A DNA stretch of 64,000 nt from an uncultured Alphaproteobacteria bacterium (GTDB taxonomy: Bacteria; Pseudomonadota; Alphaproteobacteria; HIMB59; GCA-002718135), in contig CABYHW010000001.1 in the NCBI GenBank assembly GCA_902518705.1, forward strand, positions 16,798 to 80,797. Direction: 5' to 3'. Below the pieces are notes generated by a model, which made no database searches, had not been told where the DNA came from, and was given only the letters and a program-made list of their open reading frames with translations. Within the stretch, counting starts at the first letter, position 1; each line of letters begins with the position of its first letter. Positions 4,229-18,687 of the stretch are shown here, piece by piece. Both the position numbers and the translations under genes were made by a program.

Positions 4229-4543
4229 ATTGGATTGTATCCAATTTTCTAATGCTGTTTTAGGAAGACTGCCAACCTTAGTGTCGATTAAATCACCATT
4301 TTTAAAAATCATTATTGTAGGAATTCCCCTAATACCGTATTTTTGTGGTGTCATAGGGTTCTCATCAATGTTCATTTTATATATTTTAACTTTATCTTTA
4401 TTCTCAACAGCAATTTCTTCTAAAATTGGGTCAAGTACTTTACATGGACCGCACCATTCTGCACCAAAATCAACTACCACTGGAACGTCATTATTAGATA
4501 TATCTTTATCAAAAGTTTGATCGTTTGTTTTAAGAGTAGACAT
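4223..4543 (-). CDS. trxA: thioredoxin
   Basis: WCGPC active site, GIRGIPT. Confidence 0.97.
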   Translation of the reverse strand: MSTLKTNDQTFDKDISNNDVPVVVDFGAEWCGPCKVLDPILEEIAVENKDKVKIYKMNIDENPMTPQKYGIRGIPTIMIFKNGDLIDTKVGSLPKTALENWIQSNL

Positions 4544-7826: not shown

Positions 7827-10820
<2,994 letters not shown>

Positions 10821-10849
<29 letters not shown>

Positions 10850-11534
10850 ATCTTGTTCTTATTTGATCAAAAGAATTATCATAAGATCTGAATTTTTTTC
10901 TTAATCTTTTTATATGACTATCAATAGTCCTATCATCAACATATATTGAATCACCGTACATAGTGTCCATTAATTGATTTCTATCTTTTACTACTCCTGG
11001 ATACTGAGAAAGTGACTTAATTAAATTAAACTCTGCAACAGTAAGTTCAATTTCTATACCCTTCCAAAAACATAACTGCTTATCTTCATCTAGTATTAAA
11101 TCACCTCTTACAAAATTTTGTTTTTGAATATTATTATCTTTTTGTTCTTCGGTTCTATTGTTATGAATTCTTAGTACTGTTCTTACGCGTTCATTTAATA
11201 ATTTTTGTGAAAAAGGTTTTTTTATATAATCTGAAGCACCCATTCTTAATCCAATAATTTCATCTTGCTCATGATCTTTTGATGTTAAAAAAATGATTGG
11301 AAGATCTTTAAGTTTTTCAATCTTACTCGAACGTACTTTTGAGAGAAGTTCATTTCCATCCATTTTAGGCATTTTAATATCAAATAATCCCAAATCGTAA
11401 GATTTGCTTTTAAGAGCTTCAAAGGCTTCAACTCCGTTAAGAAATGTATCTACTGTAAATCCCTCACTTTCCAAAGAAAGAGATACTGATGTGAGAATCG
11501 ACTGCTCGTCGTCTACTAATGCTATCTTCACCAT
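10821..11534 (-). CDS. chvI: response regulator ChvI
   Basis: IALVDD, DIKMPKMDG, YVDDRTIDSHIKRLRKKF. Confidence 0.93.
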
Positions 11535-11676: not shown

Positions 11677-11704
11677 TTGACATGATAAAAAAAATATTTA
11701 TGTT
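11677..11704 (+). promoter_or_regulatory. candidate sigma70 promoter of nrdAB-grx
   Basis: TTGACA (11677-11682), 16 nt spacer, TATGTT (11699-11704). Confidence 0.55.
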
Positions 11705-11759: not shown

Positions 11760-11775
11760 GCACTACATATTGTGT
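11760..11775 (+). promoter_or_regulatory. NrdR box
   Basis: gCACTACATATTGTGt matches the acaCwAtATaTwGtg consensus just upstream of nrdA; degenerate second copy 31 bp upstream (11729-11744). Confidence 0.75.
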
Positions 11776-11813
11776 TTTTCGACAATAATTTTTTAAAAAT
11801 GGATAGAATTTAA

Positions 11814-14567
11814 ATGGCAGACAATCTACAGGTATCAGCAAAAATCTCAGAAGAAAAAAGTGTAAATATTTTAACATTAAGTGTTGTACGTCGTGACGGA
11901 GCTATCACTCCTTTTAAATCGGAGAAAATTTCGAATGCTATTAAAAAAGCATTCTTAGCACAAACAAAAATTAGAAATGATAAAAATAAGGAAAAAGAAC
12001 AACAAGATGGAATTCATAAAACTGTCGAAGCTCTAACACATAAAGTTGTCTCAGCACTAACCAGAAGGATTGCTGATGGAGACATGATTCACATAGAAGA
12101 TATACAAGATCAAGTGGAATTAGCTCTTATGAGGGATGAGCATCATAAGGTTGCTAGAGCATATGTTTTATATAGAGAACAAAGAGCAGCCTCAAGATAT
12201 CACACTAAAAAACTAAAAGAACAAGTTGGAGAAAAAGCTTCTTCAATGATGGTAACTAAAAGAGATGGAAGTAAAGAGCCAATTTCACTCGATAAAATAA
12301 CAAATAGAGTCTCTGTTCTATCTACTGGTTTAAATATTGATCCAATTGTTGTTGTTCAAAAAGCAGTTCCAGGATTGTATAGTGATATTAGTTCTGCTGA
12401 AATTGACACTTATCTTGCTGAAACAGCAGCAGCTTTAACAGTTGAACATCCTGATTATTCTTACCTAGCAGCAAGAATAAAAGTTAATTCTCTTCATAAA
12501 GAAACTCCAGGCTTCATAATAGCTACAAAGAACTTATACGATGATGGTTTATTGAGAGAAGATTATTATAAAAAAGTGATGGAAAATTCAGATGCAATAG
12601 AATCAGTGATTGATTATGACAAAGATTATACCTTTGATTATTTTGCTCTTACTACACTAATCAGGGCATATTTATTAAAGTTTGATAATAAAACAATTGA
12701 AAGACCTCAAGACCTATGGATGAGAGTAACTTTAACAGTTACCGGTAATGAGTTTAATTTAGATAAAATAAAAGAAACTTATAAAAATTTATCAACTGGT
12801 ACGTATACACATGCCACTCCAACATTGTTTAATAGTGGATTAAAAATGCAGCAATTATCTTCATGTTTTTTAATAGGTATGGAGGATGACTCGATAGAAG
12901 GTATTTTTAATACTATAAAAGATTGTGCACTAATATCTAAAACTGCAGGTGGTATTGGCATGCACGCACACAACATTAGAGGTAGTGGAAGTAGAATAAA
13001 ATCTACAAATGGCAAATCTAATGGCCTTATTCCATTTTTGAAAATTTTTAATGAGACTGCTAAATCAGTTGATCAAGGCGGTGGTAAAAGAAAAGGTTCT
13101 TTTGCGGTTTACTTAGAACCTTGGCATGCCGATATTGAGAAGTTTCTAGAACTTAGGAAAAATACAGGTGCTGAAGAATTTAGAGCTAGAGACCTGTTCT
13201 ACGCTTTATGGATACCAGATTTATTCATGAAAAGAGTAGAAAACGATGAAGAATGGACCCTTATGAGTGAACATGAATGCCCAGGTCTTTCAGATGTGTA
13301 TGGTGATGAGTTTGAAAAACTTTACACTAAGTATGAAAATGAAATGAAGCATTTAGAAAAAATTAAAGCAAGAGATCTAATGTCTAAAATTATAGAAGCG
13401 CAGATAGAAACAGGACAGCCTTATATGCTCTATAAAGACTCAATCAATAACAAGTCCAACCAAAAAAATATTGGTGTTATTAAATCTTCAAACCTGTGTG
13501 CAGAGATAGTTGAATACTCTGATAAGAACGAGACATCTGTATGTAACTTGGCTTCTATAGCTCTGCCAAAATTTGTAAAAAAATCAGATAAAAAATTAAT
13601 ATATGACTATGATGCTCTTTATGAAACAGCAAAATTGGCTACAAAAAACTTAGATGAAGTAATTGATATTAATTTTTATCCAACTGATAAAACGGAAAGA
13701 TCTAATAATAAACACAGACCAATAGGTTTAGGAATACAGGGTCTTGCAGATGTCTACTTCAAGTTAGGAATAGCTTATGAGTCTGAAGAGGCTAAAGAAA
13801 TAAATAAATTAATTTTTGAAACAATTTACTTTGGAGCTTTAGAAGCTTCATGTGAATTAGCAAAAGAAAAGGGAGCATACGAAACATTTAAAAATTCACC
13901 AATTTCGGAAGGTAAATTTCAATTTGATCTGTGGAATGTTAACCCGTCTTCAAAATGGGATTGGGATGCGCTAAGAGCTAAAATTAAAGAGCACGGTGTA
14001 AGAAACTCTTTAACCACAGCTTGTATGCCAACTGCGTCAACAGGCATTATATTAGGTAACACTGAAACATTCCAAATACAAACCTCTAATATATATAAAA
14101 GACAAACACTCTCAGGTGAGTTCCTTCTTGTAAATAGATATTTGGTGAATGAACTTTCTCAAAGAGGACTGTGGAATAAAGATATGAGAGACAAAATAAT
14201 TTTAGAAAATGGATCGGTTGAAAACATAAATGAAATTCCTACTGAGCTAAAAGAAATCTATAAAACAGTTTGGGAAGTATCACAAAAAACTGTCATAGAT
14301 ATGTCAGCAGATAGAGCACCATTTATTGATCAAACCCAATCAATGAATCTTTGGCTTTCAACGCCTACATTTGGGAAAGTTAATTCAATGCATATGTATG
14401 CTTGGAAAAAAGGTCTTAAAACAGGAATGTATTATCTAAGAAGTAGATCAGCAGTTGATGCTGTAAAAGTTACAGTTTCATCAGAAAAAGCAGCAAAAGA
14501 TGCTTATATAAATACTGCTATTAAACAAAACAATGAACCAGAAGATTGCGAAACTTGCAGTGCATAA
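11814..14567 (+). CDS. nrdA: class I ribonucleotide reductase alpha subunit with two ATP-cones
   Basis: QLSSCFL, SNLCAEI, VCNLAS, PTAST, KTGMYYLR, C-terminal CETC; two VxK/RRDG cones. Confidence 0.97.
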   Translation: MADNLQVSAKISEEKSVNILTLSVVRRDGAITPFKSEKISNAIKKAFLAQTKIRNDKNKEKEQQDGIHKTVEALTHKVVSALTRRIADGDMIHIEDIQDQVELALMRDEHHKVARAYVLYREQRAASRYHTKKLKEQVGEKASSMMVTKRDGSKEPISLDKITNRVSVLSTGLNIDPIVVVQKAVPGLYSDISSAEIDTYLAETAAALTVEHPDYSYLAARIKVNSLHKETPGFIIATKNLYDDGLLREDYYKKVMENSDAIESVIDYDKDYTFDYFALTTLIRAYLLKFDNKTIERPQDLWMRVTLTVTGNEFNLDKIKETYKNLSTGTYTHATPTLFNSGLKMQQLSSCFLIGMEDDSIEGIFNTIKDCALISKTAGGIGMHAHNIRGSGSRIKSTNGKSNGLIPFLKIFNETAKSVDQGGGKRKGSFAVYLEPWHADIEKFLELRKNTGAEEFRARDLFYALWIPDLFMKRVENDEEWTLMSEHECPGLSDVYGDEFEKLYTKYENEMKHLEKIKARDLMSKIIEAQIETGQPYMLYKDSINNKSNQKNIGVIKSSNLCAEIVEYSDKNETSVCNLASIALPKFVKKSDKKLIYDYDALYETAKLATKNLDEVIDINFYPTDKTERSNNKHRPIGLGIQGLADVYFKLGIAYESEEAKEINKLIFETIYFGALEASCELAKEKGAYETFKNSPISEGKFQFDLWNVNPSSKWDWDALRAKIKEHGVRNSLTTACMPTASTGIILGNTETFQIQTSNIYKRQTLSGEFLLVNRYLVNELSQRGLWNKDMRDKIILENGSVENINEIPTELKEIYKTVWEVSQKTVIDMSADRAPFIDQTQSMNLWLSTPTFGKVNSMHMYAWKKGLKTGMYYLRSRSAVDAVKVTVSSEKAAKDAYINTAIKQNNEPEDCETCSA

Positions 14568-14581
14568 AGAAGGAGTAAAGA

Positions 14582-15571
14582 ATGATATCAAAAGGCGTTA
14601 AATCAATATTTCCAATAAAAAACCAAGAAATTTGGGATAGGTACAAACAACATATTCAAGCCTTTTGGACAACTGAAGAAGTATCTTTGCAAGATGATTT
14701 AAGAGATCTTGAAACTTTAAATGATGGTGAAAAGCATTTTATAAAGCACGTACTTGCATATTTTGCTAACTCCGAAGCAATGATTAATGAAAACTTAGCA
14801 AGTAGGTTCTACAAAGAAATTTTAATTCCTGAAGCAAGATGTTTTATATCTATACAAATGTTGAATGAGTCAATTCATGCAGAGATGTATGGTCTACAAA
14901 TTGAAGCTTATGTAAAAGATGCAAAAGAAAAAGACATGCTTTTTGATGCAATACAAAACGTACCATGTATTAACCATAAAGCACAATGGGTATCAAAATG
15001 GCTCAACGGTAGTCAAAATTTATTAACAAGACTAATAGGATTTGGATTAGTTGAAGGTTTATTTTTTGCAGGCTCTTTCTGTGCAATATATTATTTCAGA
15101 AAAAGAGGTTTATTACCTGGTTTAGCCTTATCTAACGACTGGATTGCAAGAGACGAGGGAATGCATTTTAGTTTCTCATCTCTAATGTTTAGAACTTTAA
15201 GAGATAAATTTAATAATAAAACATTAACTGATGCAGATATTAGTGATTTATCTTTGATACCCTCAGATGTGCCTCAATCACAATTTGAAGAAATTGTTAG
15301 AGAAGCAGTAGCATTTGAAAAAGAATTTGTAAGAGATGCTTTACCAGTAGATTTAATTGGTATGAATCAAGACTTAATGTGTCAATATATTGAAGCTGTT
15401 GCAGACAGAATTGCTGACCTATTTGAATTTGACAGAGTCTTTAAAACAGAAAATCCTTTTGATTTTATGAGAGCTTTAGATGTACAAAATGTTACTAACT
15501 TTTTTGAAAAAAGGGTATCTGAATATCAACGACCTACAGATAGAGCTTTAAGTTTTGATGAAGCATTTTGA
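14582..15571 (+). CDS. nrdB: class I ribonucleotide reductase beta subunit
   Basis: FWTxEEV, ESIHAEMY, VEGLFF, RDEGMH, NFFEKRVSEYQ; AAGGAG RBS. Confidence 0.96.
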   Translation: MISKGVKSIFPIKNQEIWDRYKQHIQAFWTTEEVSLQDDLRDLETLNDGEKHFIKHVLAYFANSEAMINENLASRFYKEILIPEARCFISIQMLNESIHAEMYGLQIEAYVKDAKEKDMLFDAIQNVPCINHKAQWVSKWLNGSQNLLTRLIGFGLVEGLFFAGSFCAIYYFRKRGLLPGLALSNDWIARDEGMHFSFSSLMFRTLRDKFNNKTLTDADISDLSLIPSDVPQSQFEEIVREAVAFEKEFVRDALPVDLIGMNQDLMCQYIEAVADRIADLFEFDRVFKTENPFDFMRALDVQNVTNFFEKRVSEYQRPTDRALSFDEAF

Positions 15572-15810
15572 TGGAAGCAGAGATATACTCTAAAACTAAT
15601 TGTGGATACTGTGATAGAGCTAAACTACGATTAGCTAAATTTAATCCAAAAATTTATATGCTTGATACAGATTATACGAGAGAAGATTTTTTTGAAAAGT
15701 TTCCGAACGCTAAAACCTTTCCCCAAATAATTTTAAATGGTGAAAAAATTGGAGGTTATCATGAACTTGAAAAATGGTTTGAAATGAATACCTTTGACGA
15801 AGAATTCTAA
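15568..15810 (+). CDS. RNR-associated glutaredoxin
   Basis: CGYC active site, TFPQI, IGGY; start overlaps nrdB stop. Confidence 0.92.
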   Translation: MMEAEIYSKTNCGYCDRAKLRLAKFNPKIYMLDTDYTREDFFEKFPNAKTFPQIILNGEKIGGYHELEKWFEMNTFDEEF

Positions 15811-15945: not shown

Positions 15946-18687
15946 CTAATGTGCCTGTCCCCAATGATCACCAGTACCAAAATCAACAGTGAGTGGAACT
16001 GAAAAATCTTTGTATTTTAAATGTACAGACTCCATAATCTTTTTTACATTACTTACTAAATTTTTATATTTTTTAGTTTCGACTTCAAAGATTAGTTCAT
16101 CATGTACTTGTAAAAGCATTTCAGCCTCAATATTTTTAAGTTTTATTTCCTTATGAATTTCAATCATAGCTAACTTAATAATGTCTGCTGCACTACCTTG
16201 GATTGGTGCATTAATAGCTTGTCTTTCTGCAAAACCTCTAACAGCAAAATTCTTATCGGCAATTCCCTTAATATTAATTTTCCTTTTAAAAATTGTTTCA
16301 ACGTATTGATTTGTTTTTGCGAAATCAATTTGATGCTCCATATATTTTTTAATTTTTGGATATTTAATAAAATACTCATTTATGTAATCTTTTGCTTCTG
16401 TATTGGAAATATCAAGTTGTTTAGCTAAACCATATGGACTGATTCCATATAAAATACCAAAATTAATTGCTTTTGCTTTTCTTCTATAATCGTTGTTTAT
16501 TTGACTATCGTTTAAATTAAATATTTCTTTAGCAGTTGATGCATGAATATCCTCATTGTTTTTAAAAGCTTTAATAAAATTTTTATCACTAGAAATTTCT
16601 GCGGCTAATCTAAGCTCTATTTGAGAATAATCAAAACTGACTAATTTTTTTCCTTTTCCACTAACAAAAGCTGTTCTTATTTTTTTTCCATTTTCTGTTC
16701 TAATTGGGATATTTTGAAGATTTGGATCTGTAGAGCTTAATCGACCTGTTAATGTATTAGCTAAACCAAATGATGTATGAACTCTACTTTTGCCATCTGT
16801 TAATCTAAATAAAGCATCTGTATAAGTTGATTTAAGTTTAGTTAATTCTCTCCAATCAAGCACAAGTTGAGCAATTTCATGTCCATCTGAGGCTAAATTA
16901 TTTAAAGTTGAAGAATCAGTAGAATAGGTGCCTGATTTTGTTTTTTTACCACCCGGTATTTTAAGATTAATAAATAATATTTCTCCTAACTGTTTAGGTG
17001 ATCCAATATTGAATTCTTCTTTTGAAAGTTTATAAATATTTTTTTCAAGTTTTTTACTTTCATTTTCAAATTCATTACTTAGACTTGTTAAAAAGTTTTT
17101 ATTGACCTCAATACCATTAGCTTCAATTGAAGATAATACCTCTACAAGTGGTAAATCAATATTTTTATAAACAAAATTAGCTTTTTCTTTTATTAAACGA
17201 GGGTAAAGATTTTGAAAAAGCCTAAACGTTAACAAAGAATCTTCAGCTGCATAATTAATTGCGTTATCAATAGTTACTTTATCAAAAGTAATTTCATTCT
17301 TCCCTGTGCCAACGACTTCTTTATATTTGATTGTTGTATGATTTAAATGATTAAATGAAAGATCATCTAAATTGTGTTTAAAAATACCATTATCAATTGA
17401 GTAGGAAATTAACATTGTATCTGCAATTGAATTAAAAGTTACTCCATACTTTTTTAAAATTCTAATATCATACTTTATGTTCTGACCAATTTTTAAGATT
17501 GATTCATTTTTGCAAATTTTTTTAATATGATTAATTACATATTGTTCCTCTAGTTGATTATCAATTTTTTTTGACCCATCTAAAGTAGTATGATTTATAG
17601 GAATATAATAAGAAATGATTTCGCTACAACAAATTGATATCCCAACTAACTTAGCCTTTTCTATATTGAGTGAATTAGTTTCAGTATCAATAGCGAATAT
17701 GCCTTTTTTTTCAATTTCGCTTAAAACATCTTCAAAATCGTTCTTTGAATTAATTAATTGATATTTTGGTTCTATTTCTTTTTTTTGAATAATATTATCA
17801 TTATCACTAGATATAAAAGAATTAGATTTTAATCTATCAGATGTTGATCTAAAACCCTGTTCTTTAAGGAACTTAAAAATATTATTATTTTCATTTTTTA
17901 GTTCGTTGTATGTTTTTATTTTTTTGATACTTTCATCTATTTTGACATCATTCTTTAGTGTTACAAGTTCTAAACTTAATCTGATATCCTTTTCTGCATC
18001 TGTTAAAATATTTCTTCTTTTTTCTTGTTTAATTTTATCGATATTTTTTAGTAAACCTTCAATATTATCAAATTCATTTATTAACTGAGCTGCTGTTTTA
18101 GGCCCAATACCAGGTGCACCTGGAATATTATCTACTTTGTCTCCTGTTAGCGCTTGAATAAAGATAACCTTATCAGGCTTGACTCCAAATTTTTCTTCAA
18201 CATCTTTAATTTCTATTTTTTTATTTTTCATTGGATCAAGCATTGTTACATTTTTACTAACTAGCTGCATTAAATCTTTATCTGATGAAACTATGATAGT
18301 TTCAATTTTATCTTTTTCTGCTAAGCTTACATAAGTAGCTATTAAATCATCAGCTTCAAATCCTTCTATTTCTAATTGCGGTATATTAAAACTCTTTACA
18401 CACTCTCTTATTAAAGGGAATTGTGGTATTAAATCATCAGGAGCCTCTCCTCTATTTGCTTTATATTCTGGATAGATTTGATTTCTAAAATTTTCTCTCG
18501 CAGCATCAAAAATAACTATCATTTTATCATTACTGTAATCCTCTATGAGCTTAACAAGCATATTAGTAAAACCAAAAACAGCGTTGATTGGAGTACCATC
18601 TGCACGATTCATAGGTGGTAATCCATAATAAGCTCTAAATATATAGGCAGAACCATCAACTAATATTAATCTACTCTTTGTATTCAT
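15946..18687 (-). CDS. polA: DNA polymerase I
   Basis: 5'-3' exonuclease (LVDGS, EADD), DTET 3'-5' exonuclease, DYSQIELR, AKAINFGILYG, QVHDEL. Confidence 0.98.
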   Translation of the reverse strand: MNTKSRLILVDGSAYIFRAYYGLPPMNRADGTPINAVFGFTNMLVKLIEDYSNDKMIVIFDAARENFRNQIYPEYKANRGEAPDDLIPQFPLIRECVKSFNIPQLEIEGFEADDLIATYVSLAEKDKIETIIVSSDKDLMQLVSKNVTMLDPMKNKKIEIKDVEEKFGVKPDKVIFIQALTGDKVDNIPGAPGIGPKTAAQLINEFDNIEGLLKNIDKIKQEKRRNILTDAEKDIRLSLELVTLKNDVKIDESIKKIKTYNELKNENNNIFKFLKEQGFRSTSDRLKSNSFISSDNDNIIQKKEIEPKYQLINSKNDFEDVLSEIEKKGIFAIDTETNSLNIEKAKLVGISICCSEIISYYIPINHTTLDGSKKIDNQLEEQYVINHIKKICKNESILKIGQNIKYDIRILKKYGVTFNSIADTMLISYSIDNGIFKHNLDDLSFNHLNHTTIKYKEVVGTGKNEITFDKVTIDNAINYAAEDSLLTFRLFQNLYPRLIKEKANFVYKNIDLPLVEVLSSIEANGIEVNKNFLTSLSNEFENESKKLEKNIYKLSKEEFNIGSPKQLGEILFINLKIPGGKKTKSGTYSTDSSTLNNLASDGHEIAQLVLDWRELTKLKSTYTDALFRLTDGKSRVHTSFGLANTLTGRLSSTDPNLQNIPIRTENGKKIRTAFVSGKGKKLVSFDYSQIELRLAAEISSDKNFIKAFKNNEDIHASTAKEIFNLNDSQINNDYRRKAKAINFGILYGISPYGLAKQLDISNTEAKDYINEYFIKYPKIKKYMEHQIDFAKTNQYVETIFKRKINIKGIADKNFAVRGFAERQAINAPIQGSAADIIKLAMIEIHKEIKLKNIEAEMLLQVHDELIFEVETKKYKNLVSNVKKIMESVHLKYKDFSVPLTVDFGTGDHWGQAH

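Follow-up and report, generated by a model that had tools for sequence, protein, structure and literature searches.

A glutaredoxin with an NrdB-like C-terminal tail in the ribonucleotide reductase operon of a marine alphaproteobacterium

In a 64,000-nucleotide stretch of DNA from an uncultured alphaproteobacterium of the HIMB59 lineage (contig CABYHW010000001.1, positions 16,798 to 80,797; hereafter the window), the nrdA and nrdB genes of a ribonucleotide reductase (RNR) are followed by a small glutaredoxin (Grx) gene, grx, whose product ends almost exactly as NrdB does. NrdB closes with SFDEAF and Grx with TFDEEF, so that both C-termini fit the pattern (S/T)FDE(A/E)F pointed out in the initial annotation of this DNA, and, as was also stated there, the codons behind them differ (AGT TTT GAT GAA GCA TTT in nrdB, ACC TTT GAC GAA GAA TTC in grx). 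The end of the RNR small subunit (R2, NrdB or beta) docks in a groove of the large subunit (R1, NrdA or alpha). We posit that Grx docks on NrdA through its own tail and serves this RNR as a reductant, a reading to which the sequence evidence assembled here gives about an even chance.

The NrdB-like tail of the glutaredoxin

The ending F[DEN][DE]xF is found in 2 of the 1521 open reading frames (ORFs) of at least 70 residues in the window's genome, and these two are the adjacent nrdB and grx. A graded comparison gives the same picture. We built a seven-residue tail profile from giant-virus contigs and other viral ones, using 32 non-redundant C-termini of NrdBs that are 37-48% identical to that of the window and excluding the window's lineage. 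On this profile NrdB scores 10.6 bits (rank 1 of the 1521 ORFs) and Grx 10.3 bits (rank 2), against a background with a mean of −14.8 and a standard deviation of 5.8 bits; rank 3, at 7.3 bits, has the appearance of a shadow ORF of low complexity, and rank 4 resembles a membrane transporter. The Grx tail has the features of an R2-tail ligand, namely a free C-terminal Phe, a neighbouring acidic residue and an upstream hydrophobic anchor. On these figures the resemblance between the two tails is very unlikely to have arisen by chance. Only the anchor is copied: NrdB carries, 15 residues before its end in the motif SEYQ, a Tyr that we take to be the radical-transfer Tyr, and nothing in Grx corresponds to it.

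The tail had been described in the initial annotation as an appendage to the glutaredoxin fold, and this description does not hold. Thirteen residues follow the part of the window's Grx that aligns with the core of Escherichia coli Grx3, and 14 do so in E. coli Grx3 itself; Grx is thus no longer than an ordinary glutaredoxin, and the tail replaces the usual C-terminal end.

Conservation of the tail

The window's order comprises 185 species genomes in two families, and grx is present in 152 of them and in 20 of the 21 that are of high quality. Its linkage is constant: all 31 loci of relatives, and every one of the 86 Grx rows drawn from loci L052-L138, have nrdB directly upstream of grx. The initial annotation had staked its proposal on conservation of the tail among homologues, and conserved it is. 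We collected 120 close homologues, 113 of which passed a full-length filter; a separate scan of genome contigs was dominated by one genus, its 80 retained loci all being 69-100% identical, and added little diversity. The terminal residue is Phe in 112 of the 113 and Tyr in the remaining one, Glu occupies position −3 in 94, Asp, Asn or Glu position −2 in 109, and Asn position −7 in 108. Both Phe codons are used at the end of the 83 distinct grx genes (TTC in 58, TTT in 25), and because the terminal Phe is nonetheless fixed, the tail is, on codon evidence, under purifying selection. Farther upstream the tail comes in two forms: among 115 homologues, 55 have a Phe at −5 but not at −8, 54 have one at −8 but not at −5, 1 has both and 5 have neither, and Pro occupies −5 in 46. 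Since the sequences are related, these two forms probably reflect one or few switches rather than many.

The tail is retained down to about 45% protein identity. Around P0162, a divergent Grx, 10 of 11 relatives (46-78% identical) end in acidic residues followed by Phe, and its cluster mates match genomes of a second alphaproteobacterial order; two viral loci retrieved for P0162 shed no light on its gene context. In that order the paired NrdB and Grx tails read FNEEF and SEEEF, FDEEF and SEEDF, NEDEDF and FDNDDF, and FEEDF and FQDDF; in one of its genomes two ORFs separate nrdB from grx, which follows 1.6 kb downstream.

Of the 120 close homologues, five end without the tail; we treated them as artefacts and still counted them. 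Their ends are presumably translated sequencing adapter or the ends of chimeric contigs. Several truncated homologues (P0002, P0010, P0122, P0134 and others) end in peptides that look like translated sequencing adapter at the ends of contigs, and we count these as database artefacts rather than natural variants. A separate oddity is P0123, a metagenomic protein of 62 residues in which the first 45 residues of Grx are joined to the end of NrdB at the shared word FFEK; it is either an assembly chimera or the product of a real deletion or recombination between nrdB and grx.

The initial annotation had further allowed for a tail equally common in glutaredoxins unlinked to RNR, and this is not what we find. 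On the tail profile, scores between −6.4 and −22.5 bits are obtained for seven Grx paralogues that are not linked to RNR and that come from four of these genomes; four of them are of the CGFS type, two are dithiol glutaredoxins, and the seventh is fused to a longer protein. Likewise, 142 of 148 representatives of distant Grx clusters fall below 5 bits. The six that reach at least 5 bits are four apparent members of the clade, P0123, which bears the NrdB tail itself, and P0255, which ends in SKFDSEF; a search for its genomic context in 18 viral and 14 metagenome loci gave only relatives of at most 48% identity with other tails.

Viral copies are instructive in this respect. A viral contig (L221:4950-5267) encodes a Grx, probably host-derived, that is 79% identical to the window's through ...LEKWF and in which an unrelated sequence then replaces the tail; the RNR encoded there differs too, with a NrdA of 599 residues and a NrdB ending in TWDDAF. 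In further viral loci (L222-L229), Grx is 67-72% identical over residues 1-67 and ends immediately after the GG motif (...GYSELDGLSF), grx lies upstream of nrdA and nrdB, and NrdB ends in NVFDD[TA]E, a non-aromatic C-terminus. Because such close copies do without the tail, the Grx fold evidently does not need it, and the tail appears to travel with its cognate RNR.

The putative docking groove of NrdA

The published background on which the initial annotation drew stands: in excerpts of PMC3483043, an R2 heptapeptide docks on R1 and inhibits the enzyme competitively, with half-maximal inhibitory concentrations (IC50) of 8.9 and 31 µM. The same excerpts describe two subsites in yeast Rnr1, (i) a broad, hydrophobic subsite 1 that takes the N-terminal aromatic residue of the heptapeptide and (ii) a narrow, basic subsite 2, made up of S691, Q692, K693, I696, K723, S726, M727 and Y730, in which the penultimate Asp is bound together with the terminal Phe and the carboxylate of the latter; the R1 peptide site is reported there to be very specific for the last residue (PMC3483043). 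We transferred these residues to the window's NrdA through a phmmer alignment to the Rnr1 chain and followed their conservation over 19 NrdA sequences. Subsite 2 is identical to that of yeast at 8 of 8 positions (S823, Q824, K825, I828, K855, S858, M859 and Y862), and the fixed positions of the Grx tail are those that this conserved subsite reads. In NrdA of the second order, the position of K825 is Lys or Arg. The presence of Phe at −5 or −8 in 110 of the 115 Grx homologues echoes the two-subsite binding of the heptapeptide as excerpted from PMC3483043.

The glutaredoxin and the ribonucleotide reductase

Glutaredoxins are marked by a CxxC near the N-terminus, a cis-Pro motif (T-x-P) and a GG motif. 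Grx has all three (CGYC at residues 11-14, TFP at 49-51 and GG at 61-62), none of 31 aligned sequences departs from its C11, C14, P51 or G61, and it matches PF00462 over residues 5-60 with 35.5 bits (cut-off 22.9), so that by family signature the protein is a glutaredoxin. It lies outside the named Grx3 and GrxA subfamilies, as it scores below all of the NCBIfam glutaredoxin equivalog cut-offs (44.2 versus 90, 32.6 versus 129 and 36 versus 84; Grx3, TIGR02181 and NF007923, and GrxA, NF008401 and TIGR02183, were the equivalogs tested), and its closest solved relative is E. coli Grx3 (1fov; E = 1.3e-6, residues 3-66). NrdH models are absent among its 10 NCBIfam hits at E ≤ 0.01, and its neighbours are nrdA and nrdB of class Ia. 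Grx and NrdB are separate ORFs, with a TGA stop and an ATG start between them, rather than a Grx-RNR fusion; a search for longer, fused forms of Grx yielded, from 18 candidates, one unrelated protein (157 residues, PF02567), which is weak evidence.

Grx is very probably a working reductant, because its dithiol site is intact, the glutathione synthase gene gshB scores above its cut-off in 5 of 5 genomes checked, and two genomes of the order that are nearly complete contain, besides the window-type Grx, a single PF00462 hit of the CGFS type, which leaves the former as the sole dithiol glutaredoxin found there. Since it is encoded in the nrd operon, its substrate would be the C-terminal CETC pair of NrdA, whose cysteines, C912 and C915, are present without exception in the 19 NrdA sequences aligned.

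NrdA contains PF02867 (714 bits), PF03477 in two stretches and PF00317, scores 725.6 bits against TIGR02506 (cut-off 341) and finds its best structural matches in human RRM1 (5d1y, E = 6e-279) and yeast Rnr1 (1zyz, 1.5e-277), with E. coli R1 at about 1e-74. Judged by its barrel, ATP cone, C-terminal CxxC and ferritin-like NrdB, and by the eukaryotic R1 proteins that stand closest to it, the RNR is a eukaryote-like class Ia enzyme, the subclass being assigned from the closest solved relatives. HIMB59-type marine alphaproteobacteria are abundant in the ocean, and the window's genome assembly (1.16 Mb) is 70.75% complete. NrdB of this type (E ≤ 1e-40) is present in 7 of 401 genomes sampled from the class Alphaproteobacteria, four of them of the window's order, the window's genome included, and three of one other family; in a sample of 401 genomes from the phylum it occurs in the window's own genome only, and in the second order it occurs in 4 of 4 genomes. 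The enzyme has an additional ATP cone at its N-terminus, and so patchy a distribution of a eukaryote-like RNR suggests that it was transferred horizontally, with eukaryotes or giant viruses taking part.

Proposed function and alternatives

In the mechanism that we propose, the last six to eight residues of Grx would act as a docking motif for the NrdA groove that takes the NrdB C-terminus, with the aromatic residue at −5 or −8 entering the hydrophobic subsite and the narrow basic one receiving both the acidic side chain at −2 and the terminal Phe with its free carboxylate. Docking would occur on an alpha protomer while the beta tail is off and would place Grx beside the active-site entrance, raising its local concentration near the mobile cysteine tail of NrdA. 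The docked Grx could then reduce the disulfide of the CETC tail with electrons from glutathione and leave by low-affinity, fast exchange, upon which NrdB would rebind. We infer the binding, the placement of the Grx body and the functional outcome of tail docking from sequence comparison.

A number of observations weigh against this reading. The co-variation of NrdB and Grx tails that the initial annotation had suggested as a test is barely visible inside the order, where the NrdB tail is nearly fixed as [SA]FD[ED][ATS]F and the Grx tail drifts (86 rows); all nrdB-linked glutaredoxins together collapse to 9 clusters at 60% identity, too few for a permutation test. Position −2 is Ala, Thr or Ser in NrdB and Asp, Glu or Asn in Grx, and Grx tails with Pro at −5 score only about −4 to +2 bits on the tail profile. 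On the receptor side, the hydrophobic subsite of NrdA shares 3 of 9 residues with yeast, and in NrdA of the second order Met or Gln stands in place of K855, the partner of the terminal carboxylate, and yet the tails persist. Geometry may also be unfavourable: the Grx tail follows directly after the last predicted helix, with about six to seven free residues, whereas the NrdB tail ends a long flexible stretch, and with so short a free tail the Grx body may clash with NrdA. The translational coupling of nrdB and grx suggests approximately equimolar amounts of the two proteins, a ratio that would do harm if the affinity of Grx for NrdA equalled that of NrdB. Finally, nrdB-adjacent glutaredoxins without a matching tail exist (L035, L233, L235, L243/L259, L275 and Acinetobacter phage phiAB441), and none of 75 giant-virus or viral loci has a Grx within 5 kb of a eukaryote-like nrdB in a phmmer search with the window's Grx (E ≤ 1e-3), which a divergent Grx could escape.

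Some of this evidence would also suit a tail that is functional but does not bind in the NrdA groove, whether it is recognised by another partner (such as NrdB, an enzyme of the glutathione system, a protease or chaperone), folds back onto Grx itself or answers, like the NrdB tail, to a common constraint that has nothing to do with docking. Compared with the NrdB tail, that of Grx evolves faster, and its Phe at −5 is often lost; within the order the two tails show a systematic difference at position −2, only six or seven residues extend beyond the last helix, and many nrdB-adjacent glutaredoxins manage without such a tail. We nevertheless regard this as rather unlikely: the residues that do stay fixed, namely the terminal Phe, the acidic or amide residue at −2 and the acidic residue at −3, are those read by yeast subsite 2 in the PMC3483043 excerpts; the motif recurs in no other ORF of the genome, so a general tail-recognising partner is improbable; and the fold is independent of the tail, which close viral homologues lack. 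That the resemblance is a relic or a coincidence with no present function, left for example by an ancient duplication of the 3′ end of nrdB or by fission of a fusion, is in our estimate very improbable. The two genes do adjoin and overlap, and the FFEK junction in P0123 makes recombination or misassembly between them possible, but the codons differ, the terminal Phe is fixed in 112 of 113 homologues with both of its codons in use, and the tail has been kept to about 45% identity and in the second order while phage copies have lost it; that a fused, longer form was not found among the 18 candidates adds weak evidence in the same direction.

The groove could also be the true receptor and the outcome inhibitory, with the Grx tail competing with NrdB as a brake or as a redox-dependent regulator of alpha-beta assembly. 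The evidence from the motif, its conservation and its receptor fits a brake as well as it fits a reductant; peptides of the R2 tail inhibit eukaryotic RNR competitively in the PMC3483043 excerpts, and a bound Grx, having no counterpart of the SEYQ Tyr, could not support catalysis. A pure competitor would, however, have no need of the intact CGYC site, whose C11 and C14 are kept in each of the 31 aligned sequences, co-translation with NrdB gives the cell no separate control over the dose of an inhibitor, and the standing of Grx as the sole dithiol glutaredoxin found in near-complete genomes of the order makes a reductant role probable in any case. Regulation by competition is, on this balance, improbable, and a tail-docked Grx that serves NrdA as its reductant is the reading we prefer.

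Gene organization

The features of the locus are collected in Table 1.

Table 1. Features of the nrdA-nrdB-grx locus, in window coordinates
Feature	Position	Strand	Description or basis
nrdA	11814-14567	+	917 aa; class Ia RNR large subunit, eukaryote type, two N-terminal ATP cones, all-alpha domain, barrel
nrdB	14582-15571	+	329 aa; RNR small subunit; PF00268, 298 bits
grx	15571-15810	+	79-aa dithiol glutaredoxin, CGYC at residues 11-14; stop TAA 15808-15810
NrdA subsite-2 counterparts, residues 823-862	14280-14399	+	mapped from yeast Rnr1
NrdA C-terminal redox pair, CETCSA-COOH	14547-14564	+	translation
NrdB docking tail, SFDEAF-COOH	15551-15568	+	translation; tail-profile rank 1/1521
Grx tail, NTFDEEF-COOH	15787-15807	+	likeness to NrdB tail; tail-profile rank 2/1521
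Promoter-like TTGACA, 16 nt, TATGTT	11677-11704	+	upstream of nrdA; consensus match only

The three genes are tightly packed, and their products end in EPEDCETCSA (NrdA), RALSFDEAF (NrdB) and EMNTFDEEF (Grx). nrdB starts 14 bases past the nrdA stop, and the nrdB stop (TGA, 15569-15571) and the grx start (ATG, 15571) share one A in the sequence TGATG, an overlap that points to translational coupling of nrdB and grx. The ORF lister had placed the grx start at TTG 15568, which would give one extra residue; ATG 15571 is the likely start, because the largest homologue cluster (904 members) begins with MEAE and has 79 residues. The next genes downstream are on the opposite strand, and grx is thus the last gene of the operon.

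The region contains 18 promoter-like sites, where shuffled sequence leads one to expect 21.0, and the one upstream of nrdA is therefore not evidence of function. Between it and the nrdA start lies a palindrome-like stretch (11760-11777) reminiscent of an NrdR box; a scan for such boxes, with a pattern one base longer than the consensus, gave 6 matches against 5.5 expected. The nrdR gene itself is present in two near-complete relatives and was not found in the window's 71%-complete genome. Judged from their translations, the ORFs of the upstream flank (9113-11534, minus strand) are a divergent pair resembling a sensor kinase and a response regulator, and the downstream flank (15946-18687, minus strand) holds a convergent ORF of 913 residues resembling DNA polymerase I. 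About 7 kb upstream of nrdA, a thioredoxin gene (4235-4537, minus strand; PF00085, E = 2.5e-32) encodes a possible second reductant of the RNR, one without operon linkage.

A possible second case in marine phages

Uncultured marine T4-like phages (L244-L251, L274, L299 and L304-L339) also have the gene order nrdA-nrdB-grx. Their NrdB ends in [FL]KGF[ST]L, and the Grx encoded just downstream ends in ...TG[YF][NT]GTG[HYF][ST]L. In a follow-up scan, Grx was present in 37 of 38 phage loci and both genes in 34, of which 25 combine a NrdB ending in [KD][GD]F[STE]L with a Grx ending in G[HYFEN][ST]L. Each tail type, that of the phages and that of the window, scores badly on the profile of the other. 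The phage tails fit the predicted co-variation in a suggestive manner, as a lead and no proof, and it is in this statistically weak form that the expectation of the initial annotation survives. The weakness is apparent from the remaining 9 of the 34 loci, in which Grx ends in HTVGH instead, and from a five-residue profile of 12 phage NrdB tails taken from loci without this Grx type, on which the commonest Grx tails rank 64 among 2429 background ORFs, GTGYSL 12 and GTGFTL 15. A search of cultured phages for relatives of the GTG-tailed Grx returned 781 records, all below 60% identity and with matches that stop before the tail; two cyanophage Grx examined neither adjoin nrdAB nor carry such a tail, and Acinetobacter phage phiAB441 has the nrdA-nrdB-grx order with a Grx tail that does not match. 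In five of the marine loci (L304-L307 and L309), about 1.08 kb, likely an inserted gene, separates nrdB from a tail-bearing grx, the two genes overlapping in relatives.

Taken with the window, these phages raise the prospect that copying of the beta tail is a general, repeatedly evolved docking strategy that recruits redoxins of nrd operons, and perhaps other accessory proteins, to class I alpha subunits; we consider this conceivable, although on present evidence doubtful. If true, one could tell from the C-terminus of a redoxin which RNR is its client, and the beta-tail groove would be a shared hub that alternates between radical delivery and re-reduction.

Relation to known systems and significance

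The closest parallels to the window's Grx lie in two separate literatures. With R2 tails and the heptapeptides derived from them it shares a free C-terminal Phe after acidic residues and an upstream aromatic anchor (PMC3483043, in excerpt), but in the window the motif belongs to a folded redox protein instead of a radical subunit or a synthetic peptide, and its binding is predicted. A glutaredoxin kept near a class I RNR as its reductant and encoded with the RNR genes is known from Facklamia ignava, where it is fused covalently to the N-terminus of NrdB (Grx::NrdB), an arrangement also reported from Francisella and vibriophages in passages of PMC6187632; the window's Grx, in contrast, is a separate protein of 79 residues that, on our proposal, would be tethered non-covalently by its copy of the beta tail. 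The word "tail" has no occurrence in the searched passages of PMC6187632.

E. coli Grx1 and Grx3 share the fold family and the CxxC chemistry of the window's Grx and are hydrogen donors of RNR, but their C-terminal ends are unrelated to its last 13 residues. NrdH-redoxin, which is reduced by thioredoxin reductase, pairs with NrdE and NrdF of class Ib (nrdHIEF), whereas the RNR in the window is a eukaryote-like class Ia enzyme. Genes of the Grx1 and Grx3 type usually lie outside the nrd operon, and NrdH is, like the window's Grx, a small glutaredoxin-like redoxin encoded beside its RNR, according to passages of PMC6187632. As an analogy for a regulatory Grx, Sml1 and Spd1 are small proteins that bind RNR subunits and alter their activity; they are disordered, are not known to use the R2-tail site, and are neither redoxins nor sequence relatives of Grx. 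Operon linkage (NrdH) and covalent fusion (Facklamia) are thus known, and a dedicated RNR glutaredoxin with a putative docking tail would be new: as the initial annotation had supposed, a literature search of open full texts, supplements being outside its scope, found no earlier report of a redoxin whose C-terminus resembles a beta tail.

With three soluble proteins and two peptides, the system is small enough for direct tests, and, for a bacterium, its enzyme is very close to RRM1 and Rnr1, which makes a natural protein ligand of the peptide-binding site relevant to peptide inhibitors. Both the encounter of the oxidised C-terminal cysteine pair of class I RNR with its reductant and the marked superiority of some redoxins as donors are usually explained solely by contacts of the redoxin active site with the cysteine tail. 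If Grx does dock through its C-terminus, it would exemplify a new principle of recruitment, non-covalent tethering through the very groove that beta uses, and reduction and radical transfer would alternate on each alpha protomer.

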